53,436 nt of DNA. It comes from an uncultured Gammaproteobacteria bacterium. GTDB taxonomy: Bacteria; Patescibacteriota; Patescibacteriia; Patescibacteriales; UBA12465. The stretch spans positions 1-53,436 of the forward strand of contig CAZTUJ010000005.1 of the NCBI GenBank assembly GCA_964616855.1, read 5' to 3'. Position 1 is the first letter of the stretch. Every line of letters begins with the position of its first letter. Of the stretch, positions 20,765 to 26,676 are shown piece by piece. The position numbers and the translations under genes are program-made. The notes beneath the pieces are model-generated. The model was not told where the DNA came from. It made no database searches and worked only from the letters and a program-made list of their open reading frames with translations.

Positions 20765-20819
20765 TTTGGTTTTCTAAATAGTTCTGGTAATTGTTAGTGT
20801 TTTATTGTCTTCTAAACTT

Positions 20820-22178
20820 ATGCCTAGAAAAAAAATGCCTGCAAAACATAATCCTGCTTTTAAGAAACCGGTAGAAAAGAGAAGTGCCAAAGCGATTGAT
20901 CGTCTTTTGGGTATGAAAGATATTGTTCCCGGCGAGTTTCGTTATCTTAGCACCGTGATTAATAAAGCCGCTTCTTTAGCTGAACTCTATAGCTTTAATG
21001 CTATTAAGACGCCTATAATTGAGAATGCGGAATTATATAAGAAAGCGACTCGTCACAATAATGATAAGGAACTATATAGCTTAGATTGTGAAAAGGGAGA
21101 AAATGGGGTTTTACGTCCGGAATTAACCCAAGGCATTGTCCGCACTTATATTGAAAATAATTTTTCAGAATTACCCCAACCCGTGCGCCTTTATTCCATT
21201 GGACCGGTTTTTCGTCGAGAAAAAATGCAGACCGGGCGTTATCGGGAATCAACTCAATTTAATTTGGAAATAATTGGCGAAAACAAACCGATGGCTGAAG
21301 CTTTACTAATTGCCGCCGCTTATAATTTCTTTCAAGATTTACAAACAAAATTTCAAATTCAAATCAATAGCTTGGGTAAGGCGGATTGCCGCAAAGAATA
21401 TAGCACTAAACTGAATAATTTTTATAAAGAACGTGGTCGCCGCTCCAAGCTGTGCAACAACTGCAAAAAGTATTTAGGGAAGAATATGTTGGCTTTATTA
21501 GATTGCAAGGAAGAAGCTTGCCAGCAGCTATTGAGTGAAGCCCCCCAAATCGCCGATTGTTTATCTGATGAAAGCCGTGAGCACTTTGCCAAGGTGTTAG
21601 AATATTTAGATGAATTAAATATTTCCTATAACTTCAATCCTTATTTAGTGCGGGGTTTAAGTTATTATAACGATACTGTTTTTGAATTTTGGCCAGTCAA
21701 TGATGAAGGCGTTGCTCAGAGTAAGTTAGCCTTAGCTGGCGGCGGTCGTTATGATAATTTAGTAGAGAGTCTAGGCGGTCGCCCTACCCCCTCCGTCGGT
21801 CTTGCAATCGGCTTAGAAAGATTAGTAGCTAAAATTAAAGATAAGTTAGTTTTGCCTGATTTTAAGGAAGAAGCTATCTTCTTAGCTCAATTAGGTGATC
21901 AAGCCAAGATTAAGTCTCTGATTTTATTTGAAGAATTACGTCGTGCCGGCTTTAACGTTCGCCAATCTTTCTCCACCGATAGTTTGAAAAATCAAATGGA
22001 AGAAGCGGGTAATTTAAAAGCCAAGATCAGCTTGATTCTGGGCAAGAAAGAAGTGATGGACGAAACTATCCTTTTAAGGGACATGGAATCAGGCGTGCAA
22101 GAAACAGTTGCCTTTAAGAAAATTAAAGATAGATTAGAAAAAAAAGTAAATAGAAAGGAAGGTGTAATTTATGGCTGA
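20820..22178 (+). CDS. hisS: histidyl-tRNA synthetase or divergent HisRS paralog
   Basis: LRPELT, motif 2 FRREKMQTGRYRE, VRGLSYY, GGGRYD, GLER and a C-terminal anticodon-binding domain; several consensus residues are altered. Confidence 0.85.
   Translation: MPRKKMPAKHNPAFKKPVEKRSAKAIDRLLGMKDIVPGEFRYLSTVINKAASLAELYSFNAIKTPIIENAELYKKATRHNNDKELYSLDCEKGENGVLRPELTQGIVRTYIENNFSELPQPVRLYSIGPVFRREKMQTGRYRESTQFNLEIIGENKPMAEALLIAAAYNFFQDLQTKFQIQINSLGKADCRKEYSTKLNNFYKERGRRSKLCNNCKKYLGKNMLALLDCKEEACQQLLSEAPQIADCLSDESREHFAKVLEYLDELNISYNFNPYLVRGLSYYNDTVFEFWPVNDEGVAQSKLALAGGGRYDNLVESLGGRPTPSVGLAIGLERLVAKIKDKLVLPDFKEEAIFLAQLGDQAKIKSLILFEELRRAGFNVRQSFSTDSLKNQMEEAGNLKAKISLILGKKEVMDETILLRDMESGVQETVAFKKIKDRLEKKVNRKEGVIYG
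22151..22164 (+). promoter_or_regulatory. extended Shine-Dalgarno-like element of rpsU
   Basis: TAGAAAGGAAGGTG, ending 6 nt before the ATG at 22171. Confidence 0.65.
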
Positions 22179-22401
22179 TTTTAAAAGAAAACCAGGTGAA
22201 AGTTTTGAAAGTTTTTTGCGTAAATTCAAGAAAGGATTAAAAAACAGCAAAAGACTCGATAAAGCTCGCTCTAAACAACATTTAGAACCTAAGAAAACCA
22301 AGCGACAACAGAAAAAGTATGCTTTAACCAGCATGGAAATGCAACGCAAGAAAGAATATTTGCGCAAGACCGGTAAATTGGAAGAGACTCAAAATCGCTA
22401 A
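22171..22401 (+). CDS. rpsU: 30S ribosomal protein S21
   Basis: Small, very basic protein with GESFESFLRKFKK, matching the bS21 N-terminal pattern. Confidence 0.85.
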   Translation: MADFKRKPGESFESFLRKFKKGLKNSKRLDKARSKQHLEPKKTKRQQKKYALTSMEMQRKKEYLRKTGKLEETQNR

Positions 22402-22413
22402 AAGATATCTTAC

Positions 22414-22445
22414 AAAAACCGCCGCGGAATACGCGGCGGTTTTTT
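22414..22445. terminator. bidirectional terminator between rpsU and the RelA/SpoT gene
   Basis: A5-CCGCCGCG-GAATA-CGCGGCGG-T6. Confidence 0.85.
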
Positions 22446-22449
22446 GATT

Positions 22450-23910
22450 TTATGACTTCATACCTGGAATAAAGCGTTTGATGTTTTCTAGTGGTCCTTT
22501 TTTGGCAAATTGTCTGATACGGTCGCGCGCTCTTTTGGTTTTGGCAAATTTTAACCAGTCACGGTTAGGGTGTTGTCGCCCCTTTTCGGTGATAATTTCT
22601 ACTAAGTCACCATTCTTTAGCTCTTGGTCAAGTTTTGCTAAGCGATCATTGATAATCGCACCAGTTGCTTGGTTGCCGATGTTGGTATGAACTGCGTAAG
22701 CAAAGTCAATCGGCGTCGATTGTTCTGGCAACTCAAAGACGTCACCTTTGGGGGAAAAGACGAAGATACGATCGTTAAAAATATCAAGTTTAATATTTTT
22801 AATTAATTCGTTGGTGTCCGATATTTCTTTTTGGATGTCAATTATTTCTTTTACCCAATGGGGTTGCATGCCTCCTTGATGCTTAGATTTATAATACCAA
22901 TGAGCCGCTAGACCATAGAGAGACTCTTCATGCATTTCTTGGGTGCGGATTTGAAATTCGACAGCCTTACCTTCCGGCCCAAAGATAGTGGTATGCAGAG
23001 AACGGTAGCCATTGGGCTTGGGGACGGCGATATAATCTTTAAAACGATTAGGTTTTGGCCGCCAGAGAGTATGGATAACACCCAGGGCTTTATAGCAATC
23101 ATCGATTGCTGGGACAATTAATCTCAGGGCAAAAACATCATAAATTTCGTCAAATTTTCTGTCTTTGCGCTGCATTTTTTGGTAAATACTGTAAAGATGT
23201 TTAAAGCGGACTTCAATATCATACTTTAAGTCAACTTCGGCTAAGCGCGGCATTAATTCTTTTTTTATTTTTTGGAAATATTGGTTTCTCTCAGCTTTTT
23301 TTTCGACTTCGTATTCTTGTTCCAGCTCTTGAAATTTTTCTGGATAGAGATATTTGAAGCAGAGATCTTCGAGCTGCCACTTGAGGCGCCAAATTCCAAG
23401 CATGCCGGCAATGGGGGCATATATTTCTAAAGTTTCCTCAGCAATACGCTTCTGTTTAACCGGCGGTAATCCTTCTAAGGTCCTTAGATTGTGCAGGCGG
23501 TCGCAGAATTTAATGAAAATAACCCGGATATCGGCGGCCATCGCTAAAAACATCTTTTTTAAATTTTCCCGATACCGTTCAATGCCACGATATTTGATTT
23601 TTCCAAGCTTAGTGATGCCGGCTACTAAGGTAGCGACTTCTTCGCCGAAGTTTTTTTCCACGTCTTCTAAGGTGCGGTCAGTATCTTCGGGGACGTCATG
23701 AATTAAGCCGGCGATTATCGTGGGTAAATCGGCTTTAATTTCGGCCAACAAAAAAGCGGTATGAAGAGGATGCTGGATGTATTCTTCTCCGGTTTTACGG
23801 ACTTGGCCAGCGTGCGCTTCGGCCGCAAAATCGTAAGCTAAACGTAACATCGTCGGATCTTCGCCCGGATGATTTTCTTGGAACTTTTTAATAATGCGAT
23901 CGATGGTCAT
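22450..23910 (-). CDS. RelA/SpoT homolog ((p)ppGpp hydrolase/synthetase plus TGS; no ACT domain)
   Basis: HD motif IHDVPEDT, DRLHNLRT, YRSLHT, EFQIRT and TGS TPIDFAYAVHT; 486 aa. Confidence 0.95.
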   Translation of the reverse strand: MTIDRIIKKFQENHPGEDPTMLRLAYDFAAEAHAGQVRKTGEEYIQHPLHTAFLLAEIKADLPTIIAGLIHDVPEDTDRTLEDVEKNFGEEVATLVAGITKLGKIKYRGIERYRENLKKMFLAMAADIRVIFIKFCDRLHNLRTLEGLPPVKQKRIAEETLEIYAPIAGMLGIWRLKWQLEDLCFKYLYPEKFQELEQEYEVEKKAERNQYFQKIKKELMPRLAEVDLKYDIEVRFKHLYSIYQKMQRKDRKFDEIYDVFALRLIVPAIDDCYKALGVIHTLWRPKPNRFKDYIAVPKPNGYRSLHTTIFGPEGKAVEFQIRTQEMHEESLYGLAAHWYYKSKHQGGMQPHWVKEIIDIQKEISDTNELIKNIKLDIFNDRIFVFSPKGDVFELPEQSTPIDFAYAVHTNIGNQATGAIINDRLAKLDQELKNGDLVEIITEKGRQHPNRDWLKFAKTKRARDRIRQFAKKGPLENIKRFIPGMKS

Positions 23911-24000: not shown

Positions 24001-26676
24001 ATGCGTCGCAGATTTTTTTCTTTTTTATTATTTCTCGCGCTTATCAGCGCCGGTCTTAGCCTGGCTAATTTTGCTTTTGCCCAGAACATTGATGTGGGAA
24101 TAAACGAGATTAGCGACACTATTGCTTTAAGTGCTACTGACCCCCGCGTTATCATCGCCAGAATAATTAACATCACTTTACTCTTTTTGGGAGTAATAGC
24201 TGTTGGCTTAATAGTATATGCTGGTTTTCTTTGGATGACCAGCGGTGGCAGTGAAGACAAGATTGATGATGCCAAGAAGATTTTAAGGAATGCCATTATT
24301 GGACTAGCTATTATTTTATCTTCTTGGGGGATTGCCTCTTTTATCCTTAGTCGTCTGATGCAAGCAACTGGTGTGGGTGGTATTTTTGGTGGAGATGAAA
24401 ATAATTCTGCTCTGGTTGGTACCGGTGCTATTGGTGCCTGTACGGTGGAGAGAGTGTACCCGGAGAACGGTCAAAGTGCGGTTGCTCGTAACACCTCTAT
24501 CATTGTTTCTTTTAAAGAGCCTTTAAATTTAGAGAGCGTTTGTCAAAATGAAGCCGGTGATACTTGTTCCTGTAACCAAGATACCTGTCGTTTAATCAAT
24601 CCAGAGAATATTCGTATTTTCCGACAGGATTTGGGCGACAACTGCGGCGCTAATAGCTGTCCAGATGATAATACTAACGTTAGCCGCGCCTATGTGCACG
24701 CCTCCAGTGATCGTTTGACTTTTATTATTACGCCTTTAGATTTCTTAGGTAATCCTGATGGCAATACTGACTATAGTGTTAAGCTAACGAGCGGTCTTAG
24801 GAAGGATGGCGGTGATTCTATTTTTAAAACTTGTCAGAGTGATTTCTTGCAGTGGGGCTTCGAAGTGAGCAACAATGTTGACTTAACCCCGCCCCAGGTG
24901 ATAAAGGGTGGAATTTTCCCTTTGCCTGATAATGAAGAAGATATTTTTGCCTCTACGCAGGCGGCGGTGGCCGCAGCCGCTTCTATTCAAGTCGAAACCT
25001 GCCCTAATATTTATCAGCCGGCGGTAGTTTTGGGGGTTACACCCACAGCCGGCAATCAAAACGGCAGCGCTACTATCGACTCTAATTATCATAGTCATTT
25101 TTCTTCACTTTCTGTAGTTACTACTGTTAATAATGCACAAGCGCAGCTTTTCGCAGGACAGTCTTTATTGGGAGTGGCTGATTGGTCAGGCAATCAGATA
25201 AATTTTCCTGGATTTTTTCAATTACAAGTTGATGGTCATGAAGCCGGTAATTCTTGGAACGTAGCCATTACTCCCGAGGTGCTAGCCGATAATTTAACGG
25301 TTAGCGGCGAGCTTTACACCTTTGCGGCAACGGGTAACGGTAATAATATTTTAGTTGCTCCCGGTAATTGCGATGTGAACGCGGTGGCCACTTCTATCTA
25401 TGCTAAGTTAAGCGGCCATCCTGACGTGAATGTTGACAAGAATGCTGCTCATATTACTTTAACGGCCAAAGTGGCTGGCTCCGCTGGTAATAATCTTCGC
25501 CTTGCCACCAATAATGTTACCGCCTTATCCTTACAGCCTTTTAGCGGCGGCCAAGATCGAACCTCTTCAAGCGAGGTTAAAGATAAGCATGACCGGCCGA
25601 TGAATTCGGTTATTCAATTGAATTTTAACGAAGCCGTTAATCCTTTACTGGTATCGGGATTGGCGAGCGATGTTAGTTCCTATATTAGAATTATTAATGC
25701 TGAGGCGGCTGCTCCCGCTGGAGGGGTGTGCACTCAAAATAGTGACTGCGTTTCTTATAAGTGTGAAAACAATGTTTGCGTTGGCGATTATTTGGCTGGC
25801 AAATTCATGATTGCTAATGCTTATAAAACCGTAGAATTTATTTCTGATGTTGAATGTGGCCAGAACGGCTGCGGCGAAAAGATTTATTGTTTGCCCGCCA
25901 ACAGTCATTTGGCGGTAGAATTAGTCTCCGCTAATTTAAAGACCTGCGCTTCTGATAATGACTGCGCTAATTTCCAGCCTTTTTCCCATTGTGCCCCCTT
26001 TGCTAATTATCAGACCTGTCAGGACGGGAATGGTAAGAACTATCCGGTTTCCAACATTGAGCAATTAGATGGTGTCGTTGATGCTTCTCTTAATTCTTTG
26101 GATGGTAATCGGGATATTTTTGCTGATGGCCCCTTGGCTTTTTATAACGAAAACGATTCTAACAATTTAACTTTAAAGGATAAGTATAAATGGTCTTTCT
26201 ATATCAATGATCAGATTATGTCTGAGCCGCCCCAGATATCTTTTATTCAGCCAGATAATAATAGCTTAGGAGTTGATACTAAAGAGGCGGTAAAGATTAA
26301 CTTTAATACCTTGATGATGAATAGCAGTTTGCGCACTGGTAGCGTGATTGTTAATAATGGTCAGGAAGATATTGAACATCATTTGCTTAATATTTTTAGC
26401 TCCTCCCCCTCTCCCTTAGGTTATTGGGTGACAGCTGATAATCGTGACGTTTCTCCTTTAGATGGTGAACCTGACCTTACTTTTGCCTCTTTAAACCACA
26501 CCGAATTAGCTGCCTCCGTTAGCTATAAGACTCAAGTTGGTTCCGGTGTTAAAGACATCTATCAAAATTGTTATAAGCCTAGCGCTGGCCCTAATTGTGC
26601 CGCTGATATTTCTAATCCTTCCTGTTGCTACGGCACGGCCACTAATTTACTGGGCTTAGATGGTAATTGTCAATAA
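24001..26676 (+). CDS. VirB2/TrbC-like pilin fused to Ig-like and Cys-rich extracellular domains
   Basis: Signal peptide, pilin hairpin (IVYAGFLWMTSGG.EDKI..AKK.L.NAIIGLAII), Big_5-like repeats (VYPENG...RNTSIIVSFKEP; IKINF-type segments) and many Cys. Confidence 0.85.
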   Translation: MRRRFFSFLLFLALISAGLSLANFAFAQNIDVGINEISDTIALSATDPRVIIARIINITLLFLGVIAVGLIVYAGFLWMTSGGSEDKIDDAKKILRNAIIGLAIILSSWGIASFILSRLMQATGVGGIFGGDENNSALVGTGAIGACTVERVYPENGQSAVARNTSIIVSFKEPLNLESVCQNEAGDTCSCNQDTCRLINPENIRIFRQDLGDNCGANSCPDDNTNVSRAYVHASSDRLTFIITPLDFLGNPDGNTDYSVKLTSGLRKDGGDSIFKTCQSDFLQWGFEVSNNVDLTPPQVIKGGIFPLPDNEEDIFASTQAAVAAAASIQVETCPNIYQPAVVLGVTPTAGNQNGSATIDSNYHSHFSSLSVVTTVNNAQAQLFAGQSLLGVADWSGNQINFPGFFQLQVDGHEAGNSWNVAITPEVLADNLTVSGELYTFAATGNGNNILVAPGNCDVNAVATSIYAKLSGHPDVNVDKNAAHITLTAKVAGSAGNNLRLATNNVTALSLQPFSGGQDRTSSSEVKDKHDRPMNSVIQLNFNEAVNPLLVSGLASDVSSYIRIINAEAAAPAGGVCTQNSDCVSYKCENNVCVGDYLAGKFMIANAYKTVEFISDVECGQNGCGEKIYCLPANSHLAVELVSANLKTCASDNDCANFQPFSHCAPFANYQTCQDGNGKNYPVSNIEQLDGVVDASLNSLDGNRDIFADGPLAFYNENDSNNLTLKDKYKWSFYINDQIMSEPPQISFIQPDNNSLGVDTKEAVKINFNTLMMNSSLRTGSVIVNNGQEDIEHHLLNIFSSSPSPLGYWVTADNRDVSPLDGEPDLTFASLNHTELAASVSYKTQVGSGVKDIYQNCYKPSAGPNCAADISNPSCCYGTATNLLGLDGNCQ

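Follow-up and report, generated by a model that had tools for sequence, protein, structure and literature searches.

The window, that is, the whole stretch of 53,436 nucleotides analysed here, opened with the 5′ part of a 16S rRNA gene, the 3′ end of which lay on contig C2 of the same genome (G000). Around rpsU it contained the following features.

20805–22178, forward strand: hisS (histidine-tRNA ligase), the final codons of which span the element below and the end of which overlaps the start of rpsU by 8 nt.
22151–22164, forward strand: extended Shine-Dalgarno (SD) element, TAGAAAGGAAGGTG, which pairs with the 16S rRNA tail over 13 bp and leaves one mRNA base bulged.
22165–22170, forward strand: AT-rich 6-nt spacer, with the T at −1 that is the typical start context of this genome.
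22171–22401, forward strand: rpsU, ribosomal protein bS21, 76 aa, assigned from weak TIGR00030/PF01165 matches, profile matches in the PDB and a structure model.
22414–22444, no strand assigned: terminator-like hairpin separating rpsU from the convergent relA/spoT gene, with runs of A and T on its flanks.
22450–23910, reverse strand: short gene of the RelA/SpoT family (486 aa) that converges on rpsU and shares the hairpin with it.

The product of rpsU matched the bS21 families TIGR00030 (E = 2e-5) and PF01165 (E = 2e-4), both under the curated cut-offs, and a family profile searched against PDB sequences returned bS21 in 23 of its 27 matches. A fold search with the protein gave no match at E ≤ 0.001, with ribosome chains in its top five places. 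The model (pLDDT 87.6) showed a two-arm helical layout with predicted helices at residues 12–26 and 28–36 and a long C-terminal helix at 44–67. The nearest relatives with a specific label came from Candidatus Falkowbacteria and other Patescibacteria, many record titles being generic or discordant. RNA reads (two runs from a single sample, word shares being small) assembled into contigs covering 22051–22402 and 22187–22399 at a depth of ~3, which is uninformative on transcription level, start and strand. A promoter of rpsU's own was considered and rejected, as promoter-like sites numbered 4 against 4.3 expected, with none near rpsU.

The element ends 6 nt before the rpsU ATG at 22171 and pairs with C1533–A1545 of the 16S tail (E. 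coli numbering) at −17.7 kcal/mol, in a helix of 9 + 4 bp around a single bulge in which the A1545 pair presumes a mature 16S 3′ end reaching that far. The 16S 3′ end of this genome, read on contig C2, is the canonical ...GAUCACCUCCUUUCUAG, and the extra A of the element is therefore a bulge in the mRNA. The pairing proposed in an earlier note on this DNA was thus borne out, over 13 bp with one bulge, whereas the variant anti-SD with an extra U that the same note had considered was not found. The note had also cautioned that the element lies inside the last hisS codons, and it does: hisS reads through it as RKEGV and its stop ends at 22178. Only 14 of 20,000 shuffles of the leader reached the energy of rpsU, and the leader itself is almost without structure (−4.1 kcal/mol over 75 nt).

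To place this energy in the genome, we scored RNA duplexes between leader positions −24 to −4 and the 14-nt tail for the 876 genes (88% coding) of our own gene caller, which overlooked at least one gene, a type IV pilin that a start-agnostic scan recovered. Starts at ≤ −4.5 kcal/mol numbered 99 of 876, against 223 and 247 in mock windows at −54 to −34 and +31 to +51, indicating that gene starts are depleted of SD-like sequence, in agreement with the earlier description of the window as otherwise SD-less. Among the 40 called genes of the window, rpsU ranked first, with a runner-up at −8.7, so that its description as the only gene with a long SD holds for the window; in the genome it is one of four, and the pattern of a sole SD gene known from Flavobacteriales does not apply. 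The start-agnostic scan found 8 of 99,441 NTG sites at ≤ −17.7, four of them real gene starts, placing rpsU among the few, with two pilins and a basic protein equally strong or stronger. At ≤ −14, real starts and each mock window alike gave 3 of 876, so the main proof is conservation across relatives and not any single genome.

Among the ribosomal-protein genes tested in this genome, rpsU has the strongest SD: the 18 Pfam-confirmed genes of the S10–spc clusters, with ATG starts, ranged from 0 to −6.3, rpsR stood at −0.7, and none of the other called genes below −14 (876 called) looked ribosomal. Across 30 genomes, neither rpsR nor rpsF reached −14 in any (start unsettled for 2 and 6 of them, respectively), and values of −11 to −13.7 occurred in a few SD-using lineages. 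Most starts carry another signature. Genome-wide, T occupies −1 at 319 of 392 first ATGs of long ORFs versus 608 of 2,809 internal ATGs, with A enriched from −13 to −11 and from −6 to −4 and with G depleted. This candidate start context, independent of SD pairing, is unlike that of Bacteroidia, where A stands at −3. The prfB frameshift SD was not found with two simple patterns.

The strongest SD of the genome (−22.7, a perfect 13 bp) precedes a gene for a 60-aa Lys/Ala/Val-rich protein at C2:50572–50754 (locus L036:2073–2255), which has a terminator-like hairpin of its own. No Pfam family matched this protein, which we take by its composition to be histone-H1-like; its Atlas neighbours were unnamed, the nearest named cluster, in which 21% of members carry PF07382 (HC2), being a lead, and its single match in five genomes searched (in G021) had no SD site. 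The other two genes are pilins at the head of tandem clusters.

G000:C1:144926 (L552:1427–1849): type IV pilin-like gene (PF07963), lead gene of its cluster, extended SD at −20.6 kcal/mol.
G000:C6:43444–43827 (L037:2445–2828): PF18895 pilin, lead gene of its cluster, extended SD at −18.1 kcal/mol.

Within each tandem cluster of this genome only the lead gene carries the extended SD, which may be a sign of the major pilin. Of 10 relatives, 7 had the site at their best PF18895 pilin match, and together with the three equal or stronger genes here this suggests that the ribosomes are probably not blind to SD sequences. The type IV pilin site was present in G000 and G013 and absent at the examined loci of G017, G019, G021 and G038, and the rpsU site proved far steadier than its counterparts before the type IV pilin and basic-protein genes. 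A further long SD (−22.4 kcal/mol) lies in G017 (C1 near 359561, minus strand; L308), before a gene for an 82-aa signal-peptide membrane protein that presumably resembles an inovirus major coat protein.

Relatives carry the weight of the argument. Upstream of rpsU the site was present in 30 of 30 loci from genus to order level (this genome included), whether hisS overlaps rpsU or ends 17–177 nt before its start. The site is kept in relatives, as the earlier note had required, and it is kept independently of the hisS overlap; the overlap is, by this comparison, a trait of close relatives and not of the element. At family level all 79 scorable loci (one of 80 was too short) lay at −16.5 to −18.8, none with a perfect core. 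More widely, 140 of 184 genomes had the site at ≤ −11 (own class 77 of 79, other classes 63 of 105), as did 7 of 30 more divergent bS21 loci, making the trait widespread but patchy (147 of 214) in a sample that is not random, its loci being best profile matches or picked by family, and whose counts take in neither most of the unlisted matches nor 22 genomes in which the bS21 match was weak. The element is thus a conserved, extended SD site predicted to pair with the 16S rRNA tail. When each neighbour was scored at the best of all nearby start codons, rpsU still came out on top in 44 of 48 and in 7 of 8 SD-bearing 20-kb regions, and 20 of 995 neighbours reached −14.

The helix, which in the Bacteroidota type has 9–13 uninterrupted bp, is continuous in 58 of the 140 SD-bearing relatives, has an mRNA bulge in 59 and takes another form in 23; the inserted base varies (A, G, T or C) while the 16S tail is unchanged. 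The bulge as a mark specific to rpsU was unconvincing (40 of 116 outside the family versus 5 of 25 in the background). As to gene order, hisS lies within 1.7 kb upstream of rpsU in 147 of 180 loci. It precedes rpsU in 39 of the 43 loci that have no SD, while 29 of the 33 loci lacking an upstream hisS do carry the site, indicating that the operon context neither requires nor explains the site. With a broad profile, bS21 turned up in 80 of the 81 genomes in the class around G465; of 78 genomes that a narrow profile had missed, 48 yielded bS21 and 30 stayed without a match. The frequent absence of bS21 reported for Parcubacteria (PMC9297842, in the passages used here) may therefore partly reflect divergence below the Pfam and TIGR cut-offs.

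In 108 genomes for which both pieces were at hand, 72 had the CCUCC core of the anti-SD together with the site, 5 the core only, 29 neither, and 2 a pairing leader without CCUCC; counted by family, the same four classes held 60, 5, 22 and 2 of 89. Thus 72 of the 77 genomes with the core have the site, and 29 of the 31 that lost the core do not. In G541 (loci L553 and L434) the 16S tail is rewritten at four positions and the rpsU leader is complementary to it over 16 consecutive bases, with all four changes on both sides; this leader pairs at −15.8 kcal/mol with its cognate tail versus −6.1 with the canonical one, and is the best of 184 leaders for the G541 tail. These counts and G541, the one clear compensatory case, uphold the proposal that the rpsU SD is gained, lost or altered together with the anti-SD. 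Weaker co-variation was seen in G246, G277, G567, G234 and G522, the G544 leader pairs via G–U, and position 1546 of the 16S showed no clear co-variation among 18 cases. G033, an order-level relative (L196, L039), has lost the CCUCC core from a degraded tail; its rpsU leader retains distal pairing only (−9.2), and none of its pilins has a strong site.

On two trees the core changed 6 and 9 times and the site 8 and 11 times; the first comprised 74 rows, with 34 left out for short 16S, and the second 82 rows, with 22 left out for want of hisS and 4 thinned. Independent pairs on supported branches numbered 4 and 3, never in opposite directions, which is not significant (p = 0.125 and 0.25). That the site tracks the tail indicates that the element works by pairing with 16S rRNA; tracking alone does not show feedback, and joint loss of site and anti-SD is expected of any functional SD.

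Autoregulation of rpsU by ribosomes lacking bS21 is described for Flavobacterium johnsoniae and other Bacteroidota (PMC7797042, PMC9976891, PMC13000453, PMC13000457); here and below, published work is represented by the passages drawn on. The self-limiting circuit is proven so far only in Flavobacterium. We compared the proteins of this genome with the anti-SD pocket of Bacteroidia and found most of its defining residues absent, contrary to the suggestion that the same sequestration operates. The bS21 position equivalent to Tyr54, in a register inferred from the KPS/T motif rather than by direct alignment with F. johnsoniae bS21, holds R in 59, K in 27 and S in 24 of 121 sequences, and this bS21 has no Tyr there; its C-terminus is basic, and not weakly basic as in Bacteroidia. 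At the bS18 positions Tyr32, Arg34, Lys37, Ser38, Ile40, Phe50, Asn56, Glu57, Gln58, Leu62 and Arg65 this genome has D, F, V, N, L, T, N, F, Y, L and D, so that only Asn56 and Leu62 match (2 of 11; register from 7jil_w, query 3–65 = chain 27–90). The bS6 extension is long and charged, with no Trp in the first 50 residues, where a counterpart of the Bacteroidia C-terminal helix with Trp100 and Arg103 was sought; it was judged without alignment to F. johnsoniae bS6 and aligns poorly over 30 genomes. No bS21 column was seen that separates SD-bearing from SD-less genomes. With the pocket residues mostly missing, this lineage does not belong to the Bacteroidia pocket family, although it may still act like the rpsU circuit there.

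The most likely reading, which we consider somewhat more probable than not, is that the element serves feedback on bS21 synthesis through competition between bS21 and the long SD helix. The gate would then be this competition and not the three-protein pocket of Bacteroidia. Most mRNAs would do without SD pairing and use an A/T-rich leader that has T at −1, whereas translation of rpsU would require 30S subunits from which bS21 is absent or released, giving negative feedback. In F. johnsoniae, bS21 touches the 16S tail at A1534, and its C-terminal helix clashes with an RNA helix of 13 bp (PMC7797042, PMC13000457); by analogy with that cryo-EM work, the long C-terminal helix of bound bS21 would preclude a 12–13-bp helix reaching C1533/A1534. 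The rpsU leaders are consistent with such reach: of 140, 95% pair with A1534 and 89% with C1533, whereas the figures for 25 strong background leaders are 60% and 48%. The pilins and the basic protein with a similar site may draw on the same bS21-free subunits or may simply outcompete bS21.

The start codon points the same way. Of the SD-bearing rpsU genes, 63 of 140 have a non-ATG start (GTG 43, TTG 16, CTG 4), whereas the SD-less ones have ATG in 42 of 44 (unsettled in 2; starts set by N-terminal alignment), and SD-bearing pilins all have ATG, also in G136, G212 and G217, where rpsU has GTG. A poor start codon on rpsU fits gating better than maximal output. The association of non-ATG starts with the SD fails the independent-pairs test, and this rpsU, like 78 of 79 family loci, starts with ATG. 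Counting against the feedback reading, 5 of the 77 genomes with a CCUCC core lack the site, only 7 of 30 in more distant classes have it, no bS21 column follows it, the pocket residues are mostly absent, three other genes here have sites at least as strong, and the bulge is family-wide here, while single mismatches abolish initiation in F. johnsoniae (PMC13000453).

The main rival, possible but on the doubtful side, is that the site is a constitutive signal for strong translation, with the anti-SD always free and a few high-output genes (major pilins, the nucleoid-like basic protein and bS21) keeping a long SD without any feedback. The products of the three other genes (PF18895 pilin, PF07963 pilin-like and K/A/V-rich protein) are plausibly abundant, only the first pilin of each cluster is marked in this genome, the putative coat gene of G017 has its own very strong site, moderate SDs are in wide use in some classes, and the missing pocket residues leave room for this account. 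It sits less well with bS21 being required 1:1 with proteins whose genes are SD-free, with the weak starts of so many SD-bearing rpsU genes, with the SD-less rpsU genes that still sit behind hisS and with the greater steadiness of the rpsU site; moreover, the gene singled out is the same one as in Bacteroidota.

Convergent sequestration, in which other residues of bS21, bS18 and bS6 would build a pocket for the anti-SD that 12–13-bp sites or bS21-free subunits set free, seems decidedly unlikely. The SD-poor genome with an intact anti-SD would suit it, and Chlorobia carry an rpsU SD though without Tyr54 (PMC9976891). Its candidate residues fare worse: the lineage-typical bS21 C-terminal motif L-R/K-K-x-G-K is kept in SD-less genomes as well, and bS18, which has Asn or Ser at 56 and, in most ABY1-type genomes, Tyr at the Gln58 position, has Q, R or L in place of this Tyr in G528, G542, G548, G562, G564 and G566, which have both core and site. 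We therefore rejected the Tyr as a convergent pocket residue, since it tracks class and not anti-SD status, and the bS6 extensions could not be aligned. That the site merely places ribosomes at a weak or hisS-buried start, unrelated to the bS21 level, is very improbable: the overlap is seen in the genus, hisS is usually near and weak rpsU starts are common, but the site persists in hisS-free loci and where hisS stops well before rpsU, is missing from 39 loci that retain hisS, and precedes a start in a nearly unstructured leader. An origin as a by-product of the HisS codons or by chance, to which the coding of the element here and the equally strong mock windows might have pointed, is refuted by its retention in non-coding DNA of relatives with an earlier hisS stop, by the compensatory changes of G541 and by the rarity of shuffles as strong.

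There is likeness to Bacteroidota in several respects: an SD-depleted genome with an intact anti-SD, a 12–13-bp rpsU site below −13 kcal/mol that is the strongest of the ribosomal-protein genes tested, and a site that follows altered 16S tails (G541 here, ASD2/ASD3 of Flavobacteriales there). By the measures of PMC9976891, rpsU here lies below −13 kcal/mol, leads the ribosomal-protein genes tested and stands among SD-depleted starts, on an energy model that differs from the one used there. Unlike Bacteroidota, this lineage belongs to another phylum and lacks Tyr54, most bS18 contacts and bS6 Trp100; its bS21 C-terminus is long and basic; its helix is usually imperfect, with a one-base bulge family-wide; three more genes carry the site, and GTG, TTG and CTG starts of rpsU are frequent; and many Patescibacteria lineages have lost both anti-SD and site; the circuit here is a predicted one. 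Chlorobia (PMC9976891) are alike in a strong rpsU SD, an SD-less genome and a bS21 without Tyr54, with autoregulation predicted only, and they retain 11 other pocket residues, against the 2 of 11 listed bS18 positions that match here. In Staphylococcus aureus (PMC13009471) the SD–anti-SD helix is likewise extended on the start-proximal side, and its authors hold that E. coli bS21 would hinder the extended helix, bS21 density not being seen; there the extension is general in an SD-rich genome with a short bS21, whereas here it marks few genes. The anti-SD loss reported for a Parcubacteria subgroup (PMC9297842) concerns the same phylum, in which 31 of our 108 genomes lack the core; the passages used do not deal with mRNA leaders, and they give bS21 as often absent, against the near-universal bS21 of the class around G465.

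In a second phylum, then, a real and conserved element predicted to pair with 16S rRNA sets rpsU apart from the other ribosomal-protein genes tested. Our literature searches, which had supplements outside their scope, found no experiment or structure on bS21 gating from Patescibacteria and nothing on an SD-marked rpsU in them; term searches in the main texts of PMC9976891, PMC13000453 and PMC10783764 gave no mention of Patescibacteria or CPR, although the genome tables of PMC10783764 could include such organisms. Autoregulation by bS21 is among the few clear cases of specialised bacterial ribosomes and was previously thought to need a Bacteroidia-specific pocket. That the same genomic signature recurs across much of an unrelated phylum lacking these residues suggests a more general ingredient, namely that bS21 and a long SD helix compete. 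Such a circuit could account for the retention of an anti-SD in SD-poor Patescibacteria and for its loss from some lineages. The phylum also supplies natural variants in which the anti-SD is lost, the anti-SD is rewritten or the site is lost.

A bolder version, which we think unlikely, is that bS21-gated ribosomes arose in Patescibacteria independently of Bacteroidota and without a pocket, and read a small extended-SD regulon of rpsU, lead pilins and the nucleoid-like basic protein. If so, the maturation state of the ribosome would control pilus production in host-dependent bacteria, the regulon would be the main reason for keeping the anti-SD, and lineages in which rpsU was rewired could drop it.

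Pilin-like genes recur in these genomes in other settings. Just past rpsU and relA, at 24001–26676 and downstream, the window encodes large secreted proteins led by a pilin domain, and several relatives have long ORFs with a pilin domain close to rpsU. In G021, ~30 long ORFs with type IV prepilin-like N-termini form a large paralogue expansion.
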